NCBI GenBank assembly: GCA_002387325.1
Contig: DGIN01000005.1
Span: 1 to 57,727 of the forward strand
Origin: Bacteroidales bacterium UBA4621
GTDB taxonomy: Bacteria; Bacteroidota; Bacteroidia; Bacteroidales; Paludibacteraceae
Direction: 5' to 3'
DNA: 57,727 nt
Part shown: one piece after another, positions 22,883 to 29,000 of the stretch
How the letters are laid out: the number at the start of each line of letters is the position of its first letter
How positions within the stretch are numbered: the stretch's first letter is position 1
Notes under the pieces: generated by a model
Told to the model about the DNA's origin: nothing
What the model saw: the letters and a program-made list of their open reading frames with translations, nothing else
Database searches by the model: none
Translations under genes and position numbers: made by a program

Positions 22883-24280
22883 ATGCAAAGAACAGTAATC
22901 ATTGATGCGCTCAAGCGCACTGACTTCGGCGCAGAAATCAACGTCCGCGGTTGGGTCAGAAGCCGTCGTGGCAACAAAAATGTATCGTTTATCGCCCTCA
23001 ACGACGGTTCTACTATCAAGAACATTCAGATTGTAGCCGATCTGAGCAAGTTCTCCGAGGAGCAACTCAAGCCCGTTACCACAGGGGCTTGCCTCTCTGC
23101 AACGGGTATCCTTGTAGAGAGCCAGGGTGCAGGGCAGACAGTGGAGATTCAACTCACCGGTCTCGAAGTTTACGGCACAGCCGACCCCGAGAAATACCCG
23201 CTTCAGAAAAAAGGCTTGAGTATGGAATATCTTCGTACCATTGCGCACCTACGCCCGCGTACCAACACCTTTGGGGCGGTATTCCGTATCCGCCACAATA
23301 TGGCGATGGCGATTCATACCTATTTCCATAAGCACGGCTATTTCTATTTCCATACCCCGATTATCACGGCTTCGGACTGCGAGGGGGCAGGACAGATGTT
23401 CCAGGTTACGACCAAGAACCTTTACAACCTGAAATTTGACGAGAACGGCAAGATTGACTACTCCGATGATTTCTTCGGCAAACAGACTTCGCTGACCGTC
23501 AGCGGGCAGTTGGAGGGCGAGTTGGCGGCTATGGCACTCGGCAAAATATACACTTTCGGACCTACGTTCCGTGCCGAGAACAGCAATACACCGCGCCACT
23601 TGGCGGAGTTCTGGATGATTGAACCCGAAGTGGCTTTCATACAGAAAGACGAACTGATGGACCTCGAAGAGGACTTCATCAAATACTGCGTCCGTTGGGC
23701 ATTGGAGAACTGCAAAGACGACCTTGAGTTCCTCAACCAGTATGTGGACAAAGGGCTGATTGCCCGTCTCGAATCGGTTATCAACACCGAATTCGTACGT
23801 TTGACCTACACCGAGGGCGTGAATATCCTGCAAGAAGCAATGAAGAATGGTAAGAAATTCGAGTTCCCTTGCAACTGGGGCGATGACCTATGCTCCGAGC
23901 ACGAGCGTTTTCTGGTAGAGGAGCATTTCGGAAAACCCGTCATTATGACCGACTACCCGAAGGACATCAAGGCATTCTATATGAAGATTAACGAAGACGG
24001 CAAGACCGTACAAGGTACCGATGTGCTTTTCCCGCAGATTGGCGAGATTATCGGCGGTTCGGTACGTGAGGAGAGCCTTGACAAACTGAATGCGGAGATA
24101 GAACGTCGCCGGATTCCGATGAAAGATATGTGGTGGTATCTTGATACCCGCCGTTTCGGTGCCGCACCGCATGCCGGTTTCGGACTGGGCTTCGAGCGAC
24201 TGATGCTCTTCGTTACGGGTATGCAGAATATCCGCGATGTCATCCCCTTCCCCCGTACTCCGAAAACCGCAGAATTCTAA
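22883..24280 (+). CDS. asnS: asparagine--tRNA ligase
   Basis: 465 aa. N-terminal OB domain, class II motifs '[25 protein letters not shown]' and 'GFGLGFERL'. Confidence 0.93.
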
Positions 24281-24285
24281 TCTAA

Positions 24286-24293
24286 TAAATTTG
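24286..24293 (+). promoter_or_regulatory. possible -7 box (TAAATTTG) for the ATPase/DUF4276-like pair
   Basis: Matches TAnnTTTG, 8 nt upstream of the ATG at 24301. No clear TTTG -33 partner, so the pair may instead be read through from asnS. Confidence 0.3.
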
Positions 24294-24300
24294 TACCGAT

Positions 24301-25308
24301 ATGATACAAACACTTACCATACAAAACTTCAAATCCATTGCCAATGTTACCCTCAATTTGGGAAACATCAATGTATTAATTGGAGCAAACGGTTCGGGTA
24401 AGTCCAACATCTTGGAGGCTGTAGGTATGGCTTCAGCCGAAAGAGACGGACATATAAAAACAGATGAATTGTTCTACAAAGGTGTCCGAATTGCAAAACC
24501 GAATTTGGTTGTCGGGTCATTCTTCGGGCATAAACCTTCTCAAAAAATTGCTATTACCATTGGCAATGAAAAAGAACAATTAAACTACCTTATCACCAAC
24601 GAACATCCGGATGACATATATGCCGATTGGAACGCATCTGTCAATATATCAGAATCCATTGAACTAAAAAATACCCTATCTAAGTACCTCATCTATTCCG
24701 CCTCTATTGATGCACTGCGTGGTTTCACTACAGGCAGTTACCAAATGCCGTTAGGGTTGAATGGTGAAGGATTGGATGTCTTGCTAAGTACTATGTCGGA
24801 AACAGACAAAAGGCTTATCAGAGATGAGGTAGCAGAATGTATTCCTTGGATGCAGGATATTTTCATAGATACCAATGATACATATAAAATGGAAGGGTAT
24901 AAGTTAGGACGAAGTAAATCTAATTTGTATTTTCAAGATCGGTATATGCAAAAAAACAATAACATATTTTCTGCAGAAAATGCCAATGAAGGCATATTGG
25001 AGTTACTATTCTATTTAACTCTCTTTGTTAGTAGAAAAACACCCTCCTTTTTTGCAATAGATAATATTGACAATGGTTTGAATCCGCGCTTGTGCAGACA
25101 TTTGCTTACTATTCTTGCCAAATTGGCAAAAAACAATGGTAAACAAGTGATTCTTACCACTCAAAACCCCGCAGTTTTAGATGGTTTGAATTTGAATGAC
25201 GATAGTCAGAAATTGTATATTGTAGAGCGAAATGATGAAGGGTACACCATTGCCAAACAACTGCGCACAAAGGAAAGTTCTTCCAAAATGAAACTTTCGG
25301 AAATGTAG
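24301..25308 (+). CDS. P-loop ABC/SMC-like ATPase (AAA_15/AAA_21 type)
   Basis: 335 aa. 'MIQTLTIQNFKSIANVTLNLGNINVLIGANGSGKSNILEA' is the RecF/SMC/OLD-type N-terminus with Walker A. C-terminal 'SFFAIDNIDNGLNP' is Walker-B/D-loop-like and 'VILTTQNP' is switch-like. Low-GC coding sequence (~33% in the first 60 nt). Confidence 0.8.
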   Translation: MIQTLTIQNFKSIANVTLNLGNINVLIGANGSGKSNILEAVGMASAERDGHIKTDELFYKGVRIAKPNLVVGSFFGHKPSQKIAITIGNEKEQLNYLITNEHPDDIYADWNASVNISESIELKNTLSKYLIYSASIDALRGFTTGSYQMPLGLNGEGLDVLLSTMSETDKRLIRDEVAECIPWMQDIFIDTNDTYKMEGYKLGRSKSNLYFQDRYMQKNNNIFSAENANEGILELLFYLTLFVSRKTPSFFAIDNIDNGLNPRLCRHLLTILAKLAKNNGKQVILTTQNPAVLDGLNLNDDSQKLYIVERNDEGYTIAKQLRTKESSSKMKLSEM

Positions 25309-25349
25309 ATGAATGGTTTAATTGGTGGCGTCCCTAACAACTTTTAAGT

Positions 25350-26042
25350 ATGAGATATGGAATTATTGCCGAAGGCATTGCAGATGTATATGTCATTCGC
25401 AACATATTAAAATATCTGCTAAAAGTAGATAGCACAGATATTTTTTCCATTCGTCCTACAGAGATTTTTGATGAGACAGATGTTTTAAAAATGCGTTTCA
25501 GCAATTGGGAATTGGTAATGCGTACCTGTGCTGATACTGATGTTCTTTCTGCCTTTTTCGATTCTTTTGAAGAAGAAGGGATTATCATTGTACAGATTGA
25601 TACAGCGGAACGAGGTGAAACGAACTATAACATCCCTCTACCTATACGAACGAAAGATACAGACTGGATGACCTATTCAGAGACGCTCCGCCAAGCAGTA
25701 AAAGCCAAATTGGAAACATTTATTCCTTCGCAATACCGATGTAAAATGGTATATGCTGTTGCAATCAGAGAGACAGATGCGTGGCTGATACCTATTTTCT
25801 GTAAGTCAGATAACGATACATCTTCATTGGCAAATCCTAAGGAACGCTTGCAGGCTACGATTGGTTCTTTAGGAAACAAAAAGAAGAAATTTATTAACAC
25901 AAACAAAAGACATTTGGATTATCAAGAAATTGCAAAACAATTCAAACGAACCCTACCGGACTGCAGAAAAGCCAATCGGAGTTTGGACTTATTCTGCACG
26001 GATTTGGAGAGTATTAGCACAAAAACGAATGATCAAAACTAA
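25350..26042 (+). CDS. DUF4276-like / TOPRIM-like protein, partner of the upstream ATPase
   Basis: 230 aa. 'MRYGIIAEGIADVYVIRNIL' (strand-E-G), 'IVQIDTAERGE', 'AIRETDAWLIP'. Length and the N-terminal Glu fit my recollection of DUF4276. Lies 41 nt after the ATPase stop. The family call needs HMM confirmation. Confidence 0.55.
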   Translation: MRYGIIAEGIADVYVIRNILKYLLKVDSTDIFSIRPTEIFDETDVLKMRFSNWELVMRTCADTDVLSAFFDSFEEEGIIIVQIDTAERGETNYNIPLPIRTKDTDWMTYSETLRQAVKAKLETFIPSQYRCKMVYAVAIRETDAWLIPIFCKSDNDTSSLANPKERLQATIGSLGNKKKKFINTNKRHLDYQEIAKQFKRTLPDCRKANRSLDLFCTDLESISTKTNDQN

Positions 26043-26048
26043 TTTTAT

Positions 26049-29000
26049 ATGAAAAAAATTTTTTTAATGCTCCTTACAACATTTGTTGTTGCCGGAACTA
26101 CCTTTGCTGAAGATACACCGCCACGACAAATAGAATATCAAGTAGGAGATACTGTAACCGTAAATCGCAGTGCCACTCACTATATAACAGGTGAGCGTAT
26201 ATCCCAATGGGTATATGATGTCAAACACACAATACGGCAAGTAGGTTCACTATTTCATAAAGACGGTATCTTGCTTAAAGGTATAAGATCTTGGATTGCC
26301 CCATCCAACATTTCTCCAGCCGGAGAATACTACAAAAAAGAAATAAAGGTTATTCCTGAACAACAAATCACAGATAATCAAGTAGAGGATACTACTGACC
26401 ATTCTACTCCGATAGAAGTTCCTACAACGGAGAATAAAGAAATTGTATCTAACAAACAGGTAGTGGAAAATCAAGCCACTATAGAACCACAAAACAAATC
26501 TACTACTCCTACACGTATAAGAGGGCGTATATTATCAATGGATAGTGATAATCATTCCATTGCAGGAGCAAAAATAACTTTAGGAAATCAAGGAATCTCC
26601 ACCACCACCAATGCTAATGGTGAATTTTCTCTTACCTATCTGGAACCAATAGACGAAGAAATTATTATTGAGGCAGATGGTTATATATCTGATATTCAAT
26701 TGGCTTTGTTACAAGAAGGTGAATTAAATGATTTAGGAAACATTAGTTTGCAACGTGATTTGGCACGTGATGCGCAGGAGGAGATACTCCTCAACCTTGC
26801 AGACGAGGACCTCAACGATGATGAAGGCAAGTCGCAAGCACAGGCATCGGCTTCTTCGGCAAGCACCGATGTATTCAACTCAACCACCTCATTTGCATGG
26901 TCCACAGCCCGTTACCGCAAGCGCGGTTACGACCAGACCTACGAGCAAAACTACATCAACGGTATCAACTTCAACTCTGCCGAGCGCGGTCAGTTCAATT
27001 TTTCGTCGATGGGCGGTTTGAACGACGCCAGCCGCAATAAAGAGGTGCTGAACCCGATTGAGGCGACCAATTTCGCTTTTGGCGGTCTCAGCACTTCGAC
27101 CAACTATCTGATGGACGCTTCGCGCTATGCACAGGGATGGAAAGTGGGAGTTGCCGGCACCAACCGCAACTACAAAGCCCGCGTAAATGCCACCTACGCC
27201 AGCGGACCGCTTGCCAACGGTTGGTCGTTTATCGGACAGATGGCATTCCGTTTCTCGCCATATATCGACCAGAAGGGAATTATCGGTGAGGGTATCAAAT
27301 ACTACTCGCTGGGCTATTTCTTCTCGGCAGAAAAGAAATTCAACAACGGCGACAAACTGTCCATTATCACTTTCGGCGCACCTACCGAGCGAGGGCAGTC
27401 GGCAGCTGTAACACAAGAAGTGTATGACTTGACCAATGCCTACAACAAGACCTCATGGGGGCACAATAGTTATAACCCATATTGGGGCTATCAGAATGGC
27501 AAAGTACGCAACTCGCGCATTGTCAAATCGTATGACCCGATGGCCATCTTGAATTATGACCTGAAGATTGACGACTACAACAAGATGAAGTTTGCTGTCG
27601 GTTACCACTATAGTTTCTACAGCAACTCGGCACTTACGTTCTATAATGCACCCGATCCGCGTCCGGACTACTACCGCAACCTGCCTTCGTTCCTTTGGGA
27701 CGGACAGATAGCCGACTCCAACTCGGAACAACTCTATGACCTCAACGGCGGGCATTACCAATATGGTAATTTCATCGGAGCGGATATGAACGGTCTCGAA
27801 ATGGGTATGGGGCAAGTGGCACACGACGGCAACATCATCGGTCCGAGTATCAATGCGCAGCAATACAATGCGTTGGTGGACCTGTGGCAGAGCCGTGACA
27901 ACAAAACCACCCAAATCGATTGGGACAATATCTACGCTTCAAACATTGCCAGCAATTACACCAACCCGAATGGCTCGGCACGCTATCTGTTGGAACGCCG
28001 CCATAACAATATCCAAGAGGCTATGGCGAACATCAACTACGTGAATACGCAATTTGATCACCTGAAGATTACCGCCGGTTTGGAGGGCAAATTCTCACAG
28101 GGTATCCACTACAAGACTGTGGATGACCTGCTCGGTGGCAACCAGTGGATTGACGTTGATCCGTTTGCCGACCGTGATATAAAAGAGTTGGCAACCAATG
28201 CAGGTCTGTCGCAAACCGACATCGCCAATGTGAAAAAGAACGACATTGCTGCCGACTACAACGATGTGAAGCACGATGGCGACCGTTTCGGTTACGACTA
28301 CCGTATCAATATGGGTACTGCCAAACTGTGGGCGCAGAACGAGTGGACATTCAACGAAGTGGATTTCTACTACGCCCTGCAACTCACCTACTCTTCGATG
28401 CAGCGTACCACCAATATGATCAACGGTCGTGCATGGTATCTCTCGCAACTCAATCCGCAATACGCTTCCCGCTATCTCGGTACCCAAGCCGATGAGATTA
28501 TCGCACGTGCCAATGCCGGTACACTCAAAGCAGGAACCACCTATATGGGACGGGCACACCATTTCATTGATCCTGCCTTCAAACTCGGTGCCATCTACAA
28601 GATTGACGGGCGCAACAAACTGAAGATTAACGCACTGGCAGAGACACGCGCTCCGTTGGCACGCAATGCCTACATCTCGCAGCGCGTACACGACCGTGCT
28701 ATCGGAACCATCTATACCCACGACAATGCCCAAAGTCTCAAAGATTTCTATGCAGCCAGCGAGAAAGTGGCAGGCGGCGACCTCTCCTACGAGTTCAATT
28801 TCCCCATTGTGCGCGGTCGTATCACGGGTTTCTTCACCCAGTTCTGGGACGGAAGCGAACTGAACGGCTACTATGATGACGAGGCGCGTACGTTTGTCAA
28901 TCAGGCACTGACGGGTATCAACCGCCGCCATATGGGAATTGAGGCTGCCGCTGCCGTAAAACTCGGTACGTATTTCACCCTGACAGGTGCAGCCAGCGTG

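Follow-up and report, generated by a model that had tools for sequence, protein, structure and literature searches.

A PDC-M31-type ATPase and DUF4276-like gene pair beside asnS in a Bacteroidales genome, with a nonsense codon before the conserved ATPase tail

We analysed a stretch of 57,727 nucleotides of Bacteroidales bacterium UBA4621 (contig DGIN01000005.1 of assembly GCA_002387325.1; hereafter the window) in which two co-oriented open reading frames, ORF1 and ORF2, lie immediately downstream of asnS (see Table 1). An earlier note, made by reading the sequence of the window, had described these genes as an uncharacterised defence module composed of an ABC/SMC-type ATPase and of a DUF4276/TOPRIM-like partner. 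Both reading frames, their coordinates, their spacing and every peptide motif quoted in that note are as it gave them. When the two proteins are compared to the PADLOC models, ORF1 matches PDC-M31A and ORF2 matches PDC-M31B, with the A gene upstream of the B gene on one strand. Hence, judging from these profile matches, the pair is a member of PDC-M31, a two-gene phage defence candidate. This means that the note placed the pair in the right type of class, that of conflict systems, since both proteins fall in the defence-candidate set of PADLOC, and that it was mistaken in treating the module as uncatalogued, as the architecture is already listed. What our analysis adds is a truncated tail of the ATPase, a Walker B motif in which Asp is followed by Asn, and a long residence, by vertical inheritance, beside asnS.

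Table 1. Features of the asnS locus (positions are those of the window).
Feature	Position	Strand	Evidence
ORF1 (PDC-M31A-family ABC/SMC-type ATPase, C-terminally truncated allele, 335 aa)	24301..25308	+	Pfam, PADLOC, 47-sequence alignment
ORF2 (PDC-M31B-family DUF4276-like protein, 230 aa, putative metal-dependent TOPRIM-like nuclease)	25350..26042	+	PADLOC, invariant residues, AlphaFold2, hhalign
Premature TAG in ORF1 at conserved Trp codon	25306..25308	+	46 homologues; sister species L013 has TGG
Remnant of ATPase C-terminal tail in ORF1 frame, MNGLIGGVPNNF + stop	25309..25347	+	In-frame translation of 24301-25350; 46 homologue C-termini
asnS	22883..24280	+	Stop 20 nt before ORF1

The assignment of ORF1 to the ABC/SMC/OLD class of ATPases, with the layout of AAA_15 and AAA_21, was borne out by its matches in Pfam (AAA_21, E-value 6.5e-25; AAA_15, 1.1e-15; SMC_N, 1.2e-12). 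Among the PADLOC models the best match is PDC-M31A (2.1e-76, 255.7 bits), the runner-up is PDC-M25A (6.2e-30), and further matches are PDC-M07A, HEC-01A (5e-27), AriA (3.5e-24), NsnB, mad3 (8.7e-23), AbiLi (4.4e-20), GajA and Old. None of the NCBIfam cutoffs is approached (51.2 bits against 420 for MAD3, 43 bits against 172 for RecF). We then considered ORF1 in an alignment with 46 homologues taken from the loci that we fetched (47 sequences in all). Walker A, conserved in this alignment as G-x-N-G-x-G-K-[ST], reads G28-x-N-G-x-G-K34-S in ORF1, and a signature-like motif, FSAENANEG, stands at residues 223-231, the form FSAENxNEG being invariant throughout the alignment.

The Walker B motif of ORF1 is A-I-D254-N255-I-D257 (I-D-N-I-[E/D] in the family). 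Asn is found at the position of N255 in 46 of the 47 ATPases; in alignments this position falls on the catalytic Glu both of SMC1 (DEvD) and of HEC-01A (VEEPE), and the acidic residue two positions further on (E/D257) is conserved. The missing catalytic Glu had been overlooked in the earlier note. In AriA, the Walker B mutant E393A is ATPase-defective. We take the D-N pair as a lead: it suggests that these proteins bind ATP and hydrolyse it poorly or in an unconventional way. We rejected it as a proof that the ATPase is dead, as HEC-03A reads EQPE at this place and yet defends, and as E/D257 is conserved. The H-loop, finally, is T-T-H-N-P in 41 of the 47 sequences and has Gln instead of His in the other six, the window included (T-T-Q288-N-P).

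For ORF2, the DUF4276 identity proposed earlier does not hold as a Pfam assignment and does hold as remote homology. Neither Pfam nor NCBIfam gives any match even at E<=1, PF14103 (DUF4276) included, which counts against membership as Pfam defines it. In PADLOC, the PDC-M31B model PDLC04571 matches with a modest score (2.6e-8, residues 2-210 against model positions 5-217 of 233), a second PDC-M31B model, PDLC04573, matches at 2e-7, and the C-terminal half matches the HEC-01B model at 1e-5; no AriB/DUF4435, mad4, RloB, AbiLii or TOPRIM-Old match was found in Pfam or PADLOC. A first search with ORF2 returned 122 relatives, none of which has a Pfam domain. The profile built from 104 of them reached 768 clusters (50% identity) at E<=1e-3. 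Out of 63 distant members of this family, 17 match PF14103 below its gathering threshold of 30.2 bits, three match RloB (weakly) and two DUF3226, and a few members of the sister clade carry a precomputed PF14103 match. The family member which scores best on PF14103, P0262, reaches 28.3 bits over nearly the whole model; its match to the ORF2 profile has an E-value of 5e-29, and it finds at 1e-32 a plasmid protein of Pseudanabaena, WP_126391102, named 'DUF4276 family protein' in RefSeq. Aligning the ORF2 family directly with WP_126391102 by means of hhalign gave a probability of 98.1% (E 1.1e-13, 194 columns). The gene pair to which this protein belongs ('AAA family ATPase' and 'DUF4276 family protein') matches PDC-M31A at 2.3e-79 and PDC-M31B at 4e-9, and its ATPase is 32% identical to ORF1, with the same type of Walker B (IDNIE). 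From the intermediate P0262, the sub-threshold matches, the hhalign result and the scores of the Pseudanabaena pair, we concluded that ORF2 is a divergent protein of the DUF4276 type, to judge by these remote homologies, lying beyond the reach of the Pfam model. With the tested HEC-01B, used as a single sequence, hhalign gave nothing significant (probability 0.3%). The public names of the ORF2 family are misleading: 'TetR family transcriptional regulator' (Bacteroides ndongoniae, JGI records) and 'phage tail protein' (several cyanobacteria) are given to the ORF2 homologues P0024 and P0015 and to the sister-clade members P0362, P0396, P0420 and P0446, and we found no domain support for either name in the family.

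DUF4276 has been placed in the Toprim superfamily on the grounds that a Glu follows strand 1 and a DxD motif follows strand 3 (PMC12065111). The AlphaFold2 model of ORF2 (pLDDT, or predicted local distance difference test, 90.3; predicted template modelling score, pTM, 0.88) has a strand at residues 2-6, a helix, a strand at 31-33, helices, a strand at 77-84, a long helix, a strand at 133-138 and a helical C-terminal part. We read this as an order of elements alone, compatible with TOPRIM, and not as the sheet order 2-1-3-4. Strands 1, 3 and 4 of the prediction are each followed by two conserved acidic residues, E8/D12, D84/E87 and E141/D143 respectively, D84 standing at the very end of the strand 77-84. 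All of the 124 sequences compared, whatever their clade, have both E8 and D84 (E8 being present, in particular, in all 104 members of the ORF2 clade), and E87, E141 and K164 are invariant inside the ORF2 clade. The invariant N-terminal Glu which the earlier note expected of a DUF4276 protein is thus there, directly after the predicted strand 2-6. The position of the DxD motif reads D84-T-A86-E87 in the ORF2 clade, A86 being invariant, as against IDTD in the sister clade and IDSD in the annotated DUF4276 protein. The TOPRIM fold, which the same note had expected to emerge from a structural comparison, was not recovered: three Foldseek searches (the full model, pLDDT 90, against both PDB and BFVD; a model of the N-terminal domain, pLDDT 84, against PDB) returned nothing at E<=1e-3 and no TOPRIM protein in the top 50, only weak generic alpha/beta matches with template modelling (TM) scores below 0.4, although Foldseek is possibly insensitive for so small a fold. 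Searching PDB with a sequence profile of the ORF2 family likewise gave nothing below E=1. The TOPRIM assignment of ORF2 is therefore putative: it draws on remote homology, on the pattern of residues and on the literature, the fold being unconfirmed. One residue next to this pattern differs from the family: R140 (25767-25769) stands beside the invariant E141, where 102 of the 104 clade members have Glu. We considered E140R as an inactivating lesion and rejected it, as HEC-01B has Arg at what seems by eye to be the same position (RELEAF against RETDAW).

We now turn to the end of ORF1. In 46 of 46 homologous ATPases, the protein is closed by a tail of the form ...LSE[ML]-W-[MV]-x-G-x-x-G-[GA]-x-P-x-x-F, and the stop codon lies about 2 nucleotides before the start of the partner gene, or overlaps it. 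In the window, the frame of ORF1 runs ...LSEM-TAG-ATG and continues up to TTT TAA, which translates as MNGLIGGVPNNF between two stops: the codon of the conserved Trp, still TGG in the sister species, is changed to TAG. Hence, as far as the reading frame tells, the conserved 13-residue tail of the ATPase is removed by a nonsense mutation, a fact which the earlier note had overlooked. The 41 nucleotides between ORF1 and ORF2, taken there as an intergenic spacer, are in reality the remnant of the tail behind the nonsense codon. The first codon of this remnant is an ATG adjoining the TAG; its 12 residues are those of the sister species, and its own stop lies 2 nucleotides before the start of ORF2. 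This last distance is the ancestral coupled arrangement; the new stop is now 41 nucleotides away from ORF2. The TAG is present in the window and in 10 contigs of the same species coming from several samples (11 of the 11 junctions read, four haplotypes), i.e. it is fixed in this species. The twelve sequences available for the species differ by 4 single-nucleotide polymorphisms (SNPs) in 1742 nucleotides, one of which, at position 25741 (residue 131 of ORF2), gives Cys in the window and in four contigs and Tyr in seven, including the representative P0001. Since HEC-01A carries a C-terminal motif, L-x-x-L-W-x-x-G, which resembles the tail of PDC-M31A (in common, L-x-x-[LM]-W-x-x-G), the conserved tail is probably important for function. 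Because the fixed nonsense codon removes it, the copy of this species may be altered or weakened. Elsewhere in the family, ATPases of 204 residues at L008-L012 (upstream of P0024) were first taken as truncated and proved to be an artefact of start-codon calling: the open reading frame of 362 residues is intact, and the 362-residue ATPase of the isolate genome L007 is identical in L008, L009, L011 and L012 and differs by one substitution in L010.

The order asnS - pair - receptor - DUF5689 is common to the window, to the sister species Bacteroidales bacterium UBA6828 (L013) and to a more distant Bacteroidales metagenome-assembled genome (L014). Relative to the window, the identities are 98% for asnS, 92% for ORF1, 86% for ORF2 and 94% for the receptor in L013; they are 69% for ORF1, 64% for ORF2 and 68% for the receptor in L014, whose contig contains only the last 28 residues of asnS. 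Every contig with an identical asnS carries the pair: we saw no empty site among them, and no gain or loss at the level of strains. When compared to L013, the ratio of nonsynonymous to synonymous substitution rates (dN/dS) is 0.083 for ORF1 and 0.194 for ORF2, as against 0.02-0.07 for the flanking genes, and dS is 0.38-0.43 for the pair, in line with the 0.44-0.75 of the flanks. The shared synteny, the universal presence beside identical asnS, the values of dS and the low dN/dS all point in one direction: the pair has long resided at this site and has been passed on vertically, together with asnS, in three lineages, while purifying selection acted on it. Its rate of evolution is somewhat above that of the neighbouring genes. 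The strength of the ORF1 matches, the 768 clusters reached by the ORF2 profile and the low dN/dS of both genes set the pair well apart from chance reading frames.

Outside this lineage, the association of the two genes is constant and their location is not. In each of the 47 genome loci with upstream DNA, the gene immediately upstream of the ORF2 homologue is a co-oriented homologue of ORF1, so that the conserved pairing proposed at first is confirmed; these 47 loci present about 37 distinct flank contexts. The same pairing, ATPase first, occurs on MOBQ plasmids (10-13 kb) of Acinetobacter as well as in Myxococcota and cyanobacteria. The copy of Bacteroides ndongoniae belongs to a conjugative element that encodes an integrase, HTH_17, a methylase-helicase of 1900 residues and topoisomerase III. 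A widespread island of Bacteroides and Phocaeicola, whose ORF2 cluster has 429 member sequences, carries genes for a DnaG-like primase, WYL and YpsA, with a type I restriction-modification (RM) system 6 kb from the pair. At L079:1-4842 the pair stands beside a GmrSD_N-domain protein of 1771 residues, two PRiA4_ORF3 genes and a second AAA_21/AAA_15 ATPase (333 residues) which has its own partner of 245 residues without a Pfam domain; from its gene content, this looks like a small defence island with two ATPase-partner modules. A distant PDC-M31-like pair, L077, is found on the Acinetobacter haemolyticus plasmid pAhaem11616e (1927-3929), near replication genes and the BrnT/BrnA toxin-antitoxin genes; its ATPase has the Walker B A-I-E-S-I-D, again without the canonical D-E. 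Other copies are solitary, in capsule loci or among housekeeping genes. We scanned 129 neighbour proteins and found nSTAND3, Mrr_cat, methyltransferases, mad3/mad8, IetA and other PDC models, as well as ordinary metabolism. The enrichment near defence genes which the earlier note called for is thus seen in part: some copies do lie in defence or mobile neighbourhoods, but many are alone at housekeeping sites. The module looks like a mobile accessory, sometimes but not always inside defence islands. Carriage by phages was considered and rejected, both matches in IMG/VR (where they are labelled viral) being the Bacteroides primase island seen in bacterial genomes.

The PDC systems are 145 untested candidates nominated, by "guilt by embedding", from their occurrence inside Hma, BREX, DISARM and type I RM loci (Payne et al. 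2024, bioRxiv 10.1101/2024.01.29.577857); PDC-M31, multi-gene candidate no. 31, is the curated cassette CAS_00126, FAM_00005>>FAM_00304, of that study. The window agrees with PDC-M31 in the best models of both proteins and in their order on one strand. It differs in that the copies which led to the nomination sit inside BREX, DISARM or type I RM loci, whereas the window copy lies in no defence system, and in that the window ATPase is cut by a nonsense codon. The earlier note had also held that no pair of an ATPase and a DUF4276 protein was experimentally characterised. This is not so: HEC-01 has already been tested, and Mad3-Mad4 of MADS is a further pair of this kind, grouped with the ABC ATPase + TOPRIM systems. 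HEC-01 is composed, like our pair, of an ABC ATPase followed by a DUF4276-type protein of about 200 residues, in which strand 1 is followed by a Glu and strands 3 and 4 by acidic motifs. The similarity of the window to it is, however, much weaker than to PDC-M31, the BLAST alignment of ORF1 with HEC-01A is confined to the N-terminus, and HEC-01A has a VEEPE Walker B and an H-loop His where ORF1 has IDNID and Gln. The results of the defence tests of HEC-01 are mixed: a representative protected E. coli B from at least one phage (PMC12881386), whereas the HEC-01 of Pseudomonas agarici gave no defence in the study of Payne et al. (bioRxiv 10.1101/2024.01.29.577857).

Of the possible mechanistic templates, PARIS is understood best. 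There, the nuclease is sequestered by the ATPase until a trigger binds; it is then released and cuts tRNA. Our pair shares with PARIS an AAA_15/21 ABC ATPase (ORF1 matching AriA, as said above) and a separate small effector, putatively of the TOPRIM type. The differences are threefold: AriB is a DUF4435 TOPRIM protein, while ORF2 has no DUF4435/AriB match; AriA requires its Walker B Glu E393, in place of which the PDC-M31A family has Asn; and PARIS is common on phages and satellites, while the PDC-M31-type family has 0 matches in the phage collection and 2 among the 2.9 million contigs of IMG/VR. With MADS the likeness is that of Mad3, an AAA_15/21 ATPase, beside the DUF4276-type Mad4; ORF1 matches the PADLOC mad3 model, but it stays far below the NCBIfam MAD3 cutoff, ORF2 has no mad4 match, and no methyltransferase or mad genes are adjacent. 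OLD, GajA and AbiL have the same class of ATPase and, in general outline, likewise combine it with a TOPRIM-like nuclease. In OLD and GajA, though, the domains are fused in one polypeptide of about 570-600 residues, where the window has two genes, and only the N-terminal 40-60 residues of ORF1 match; as for AbiL and OLD, ORF2 lacks the corresponding RloB, AbiLii and TOPRIM-Old matches.

By analogy with these systems, we infer a function in defence, and the reading towards which we lean, with moderate confidence, is that the pair is a chromosomal copy of PDC-M31 in which the ATPase would act as the sensor or regulator of a metal-dependent nuclease. The partners are an ABC-type ATPase (AAA_15/21, with an SMC/RecF-like head) and a translationally coupled downstream DUF4276-like protein bearing acidic residues as in a TOPRIM-type nuclease. 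As an ATP-dependent sensor, the former would restrain the latter as long as no phage or mobile element has given a signal (compare PARIS, HEC-01, AbiL and OLD/Gabija); the freed nuclease would then cut nucleic acid, DNA or tRNA, and the invader would be restricted or the infection aborted. As the Walker B motif is without its usual catalytic Glu, ATP would perhaps be more a binding switch than a fuel. In this species the module is an old one, transmitted vertically between asnS and the outer-membrane receptor gene.

Several observations weigh against this reading. In the literature that we searched we found no experimental test of any PDC-M31 member, and the HEC-01 of Pseudomonas agarici failed to defend. 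Many copies, that of the window included, stand among housekeeping genes without a defence neighbour; the evidence from neighbours consists of qualitative family counts; and the phage collection contains no match to the family. The ORF2 clade has D-T-A-E in place of the canonical DxD, and neither the full model of ORF2 nor that of its N-terminal domain recovers a TOPRIM structure or any other significant match. Finally, the truncated tail of the ATPase and the Gln replacing the H-loop His mean that this copy may not work like its relatives.

These last two features lead to the first alternative, a fairly unlikely one to our mind, according to which the module is here a relic, disabled or in decay: the system would have been uncoupled or inactivated by the nonsense mutation and would be heading to loss. 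It would explain that the TAG strips a tail held by 46 of 46 homologues and is fixed at 11 of 11 junctions of the species, that Gln stands in for the H-loop His in this clade (6 of 47 sequences), that ORF2 carries R140 instead of the Glu found in 102 of 104 relatives, and that the 2-nucleotide ancestral coupling to ORF2 is lost, the new stop being 41 nucleotides away. Yet ORF1 and ORF2 are otherwise intact, their dN/dS with respect to the sister species (0.08 and 0.19) is low with a dS like that of the flanking genes, and the remnant of the tail still codes for the 12 residues of the sister species behind an ATG which directly follows the TAG. R140 need not be harmful either, given the Arg of HEC-01B (RELEAF), and the 4 SNPs among four haplotypes are too few to gauge a recent relaxation of selection.

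The mobility of the family raises a second alternative, clearly unlikely in our estimate: the pair would be a selfish toxin-regulator module for addiction or stabilisation, in which the ATPase keeps a toxic nuclease in check, with no dedicated role against phages. Small mobilizable Acinetobacter plasmids carry it near replication genes and BrnT/BrnA, conjugative and primase islands carry it as well, it is inserted alone at many unrelated housekeeping sites, and Pfam describes AAA_21 as a 'putative AbiEii toxin, Type IV TA system' (toxin-antitoxin). On the other hand, addiction alone does not predict that a single chromosomal site be kept vertically in three lineages under purifying selection, and the closest tested architectures, PARIS, HEC-01 and AbiL, work in phage defence. 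Addiction and abortive infection can, moreover, coexist.

A joint reading, quite improbable as we see it, would have the PDC-M31 ATPases be natural 'hydrolysis-poor' ABC switches, their Asn recalling engineered EQ mutants, and the module of the window be remodelled rather than broken. In such a case the tail would have been split off at TAG-ATG as a separate peptide of 12 residues, or dropped, and the nuclease would be differently regulated or co-opted by the host near dnaB/asnS; the outcome would be a variant that is inherited stably and maintained by selection. A domestication of the pair for a housekeeping role on nucleic acids (RecF/SMC-like repair or RNA processing), co-expressed with dnaB and asnS, is very improbable: the position 20 nucleotides 3' of asnS, on the same strand and in a run of co-oriented housekeeping genes, the synteny kept in two related species, the lack of an empty site among contigs with identical asnS and the purifying selection would suit it, but the family is patchy across phyla with some 37 flank contexts, the GC content is below that of the flanks, the cutoffs of the NCBIfam housekeeping models are not approached (RecF, as given above), and the best matches are all models of defence candidates.

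If PDC-M31 does work in defence, it would constitute an extra branch of the group of systems in which an ABC ATPase is combined with a TOPRIM-like nuclease (OLD, Gabija, PARIS, AbiL, HEC-01, Mad3-4), a branch common in gut Bacteroidales, as the allele cluster of 429 members by itself indicates. The D-N Walker B would then offer a natural test of whether such sensors require the hydrolysis of ATP or just its binding. In the same way, the nonsense allele carried species-wide, set against the intact allele of the sister species, is a natural experiment on the role of the tail of the ATPase. For the window itself, the finding is mainly shifted from an uncharacterised novelty to a member of a catalogued, untested candidate.

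Concerning the surroundings of the pair, the proportion of guanine and cytosine (GC), about 0.50 outside, is down to 0.33-0.40 in the two genes, in agreement with the low-GC islet described at first. This islet is wider than the pair, because the dip (about 0.36) carries on for about 750 nucleotides (26049-26800) into the downstream receptor gene. No direct or inverted repeats of note flank the pair, no Rfam family was found at 20-31 kb of the window and no tRNA gene in the window as a whole, so that the pair bears no marks of insertion. The sequence TAAATTTG at 24286-24293, 8 nucleotides 5' of the ATG of ORF1, fits the Bacteroides -7 promoter consensus, TAnnTTTG. A transcription start at TAAATTTG would yield a nearly leaderless ORF1 transcript; if the pair has no start of its own, it is probably read through from asnS. 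Downstream, the next long open reading frame begins at 26049, 6 nucleotides past the end of ORF2, and gene callers working on identical contigs place the start of the downstream gene 25 nucleotides past ORF2. This gene codes for a receptor of 1234 residues with a CarboxypepD_reg domain. The match of the receptor of L014 begins at residue 155, because of which the N-terminal region of the receptor appears to be variable or separately acquired.

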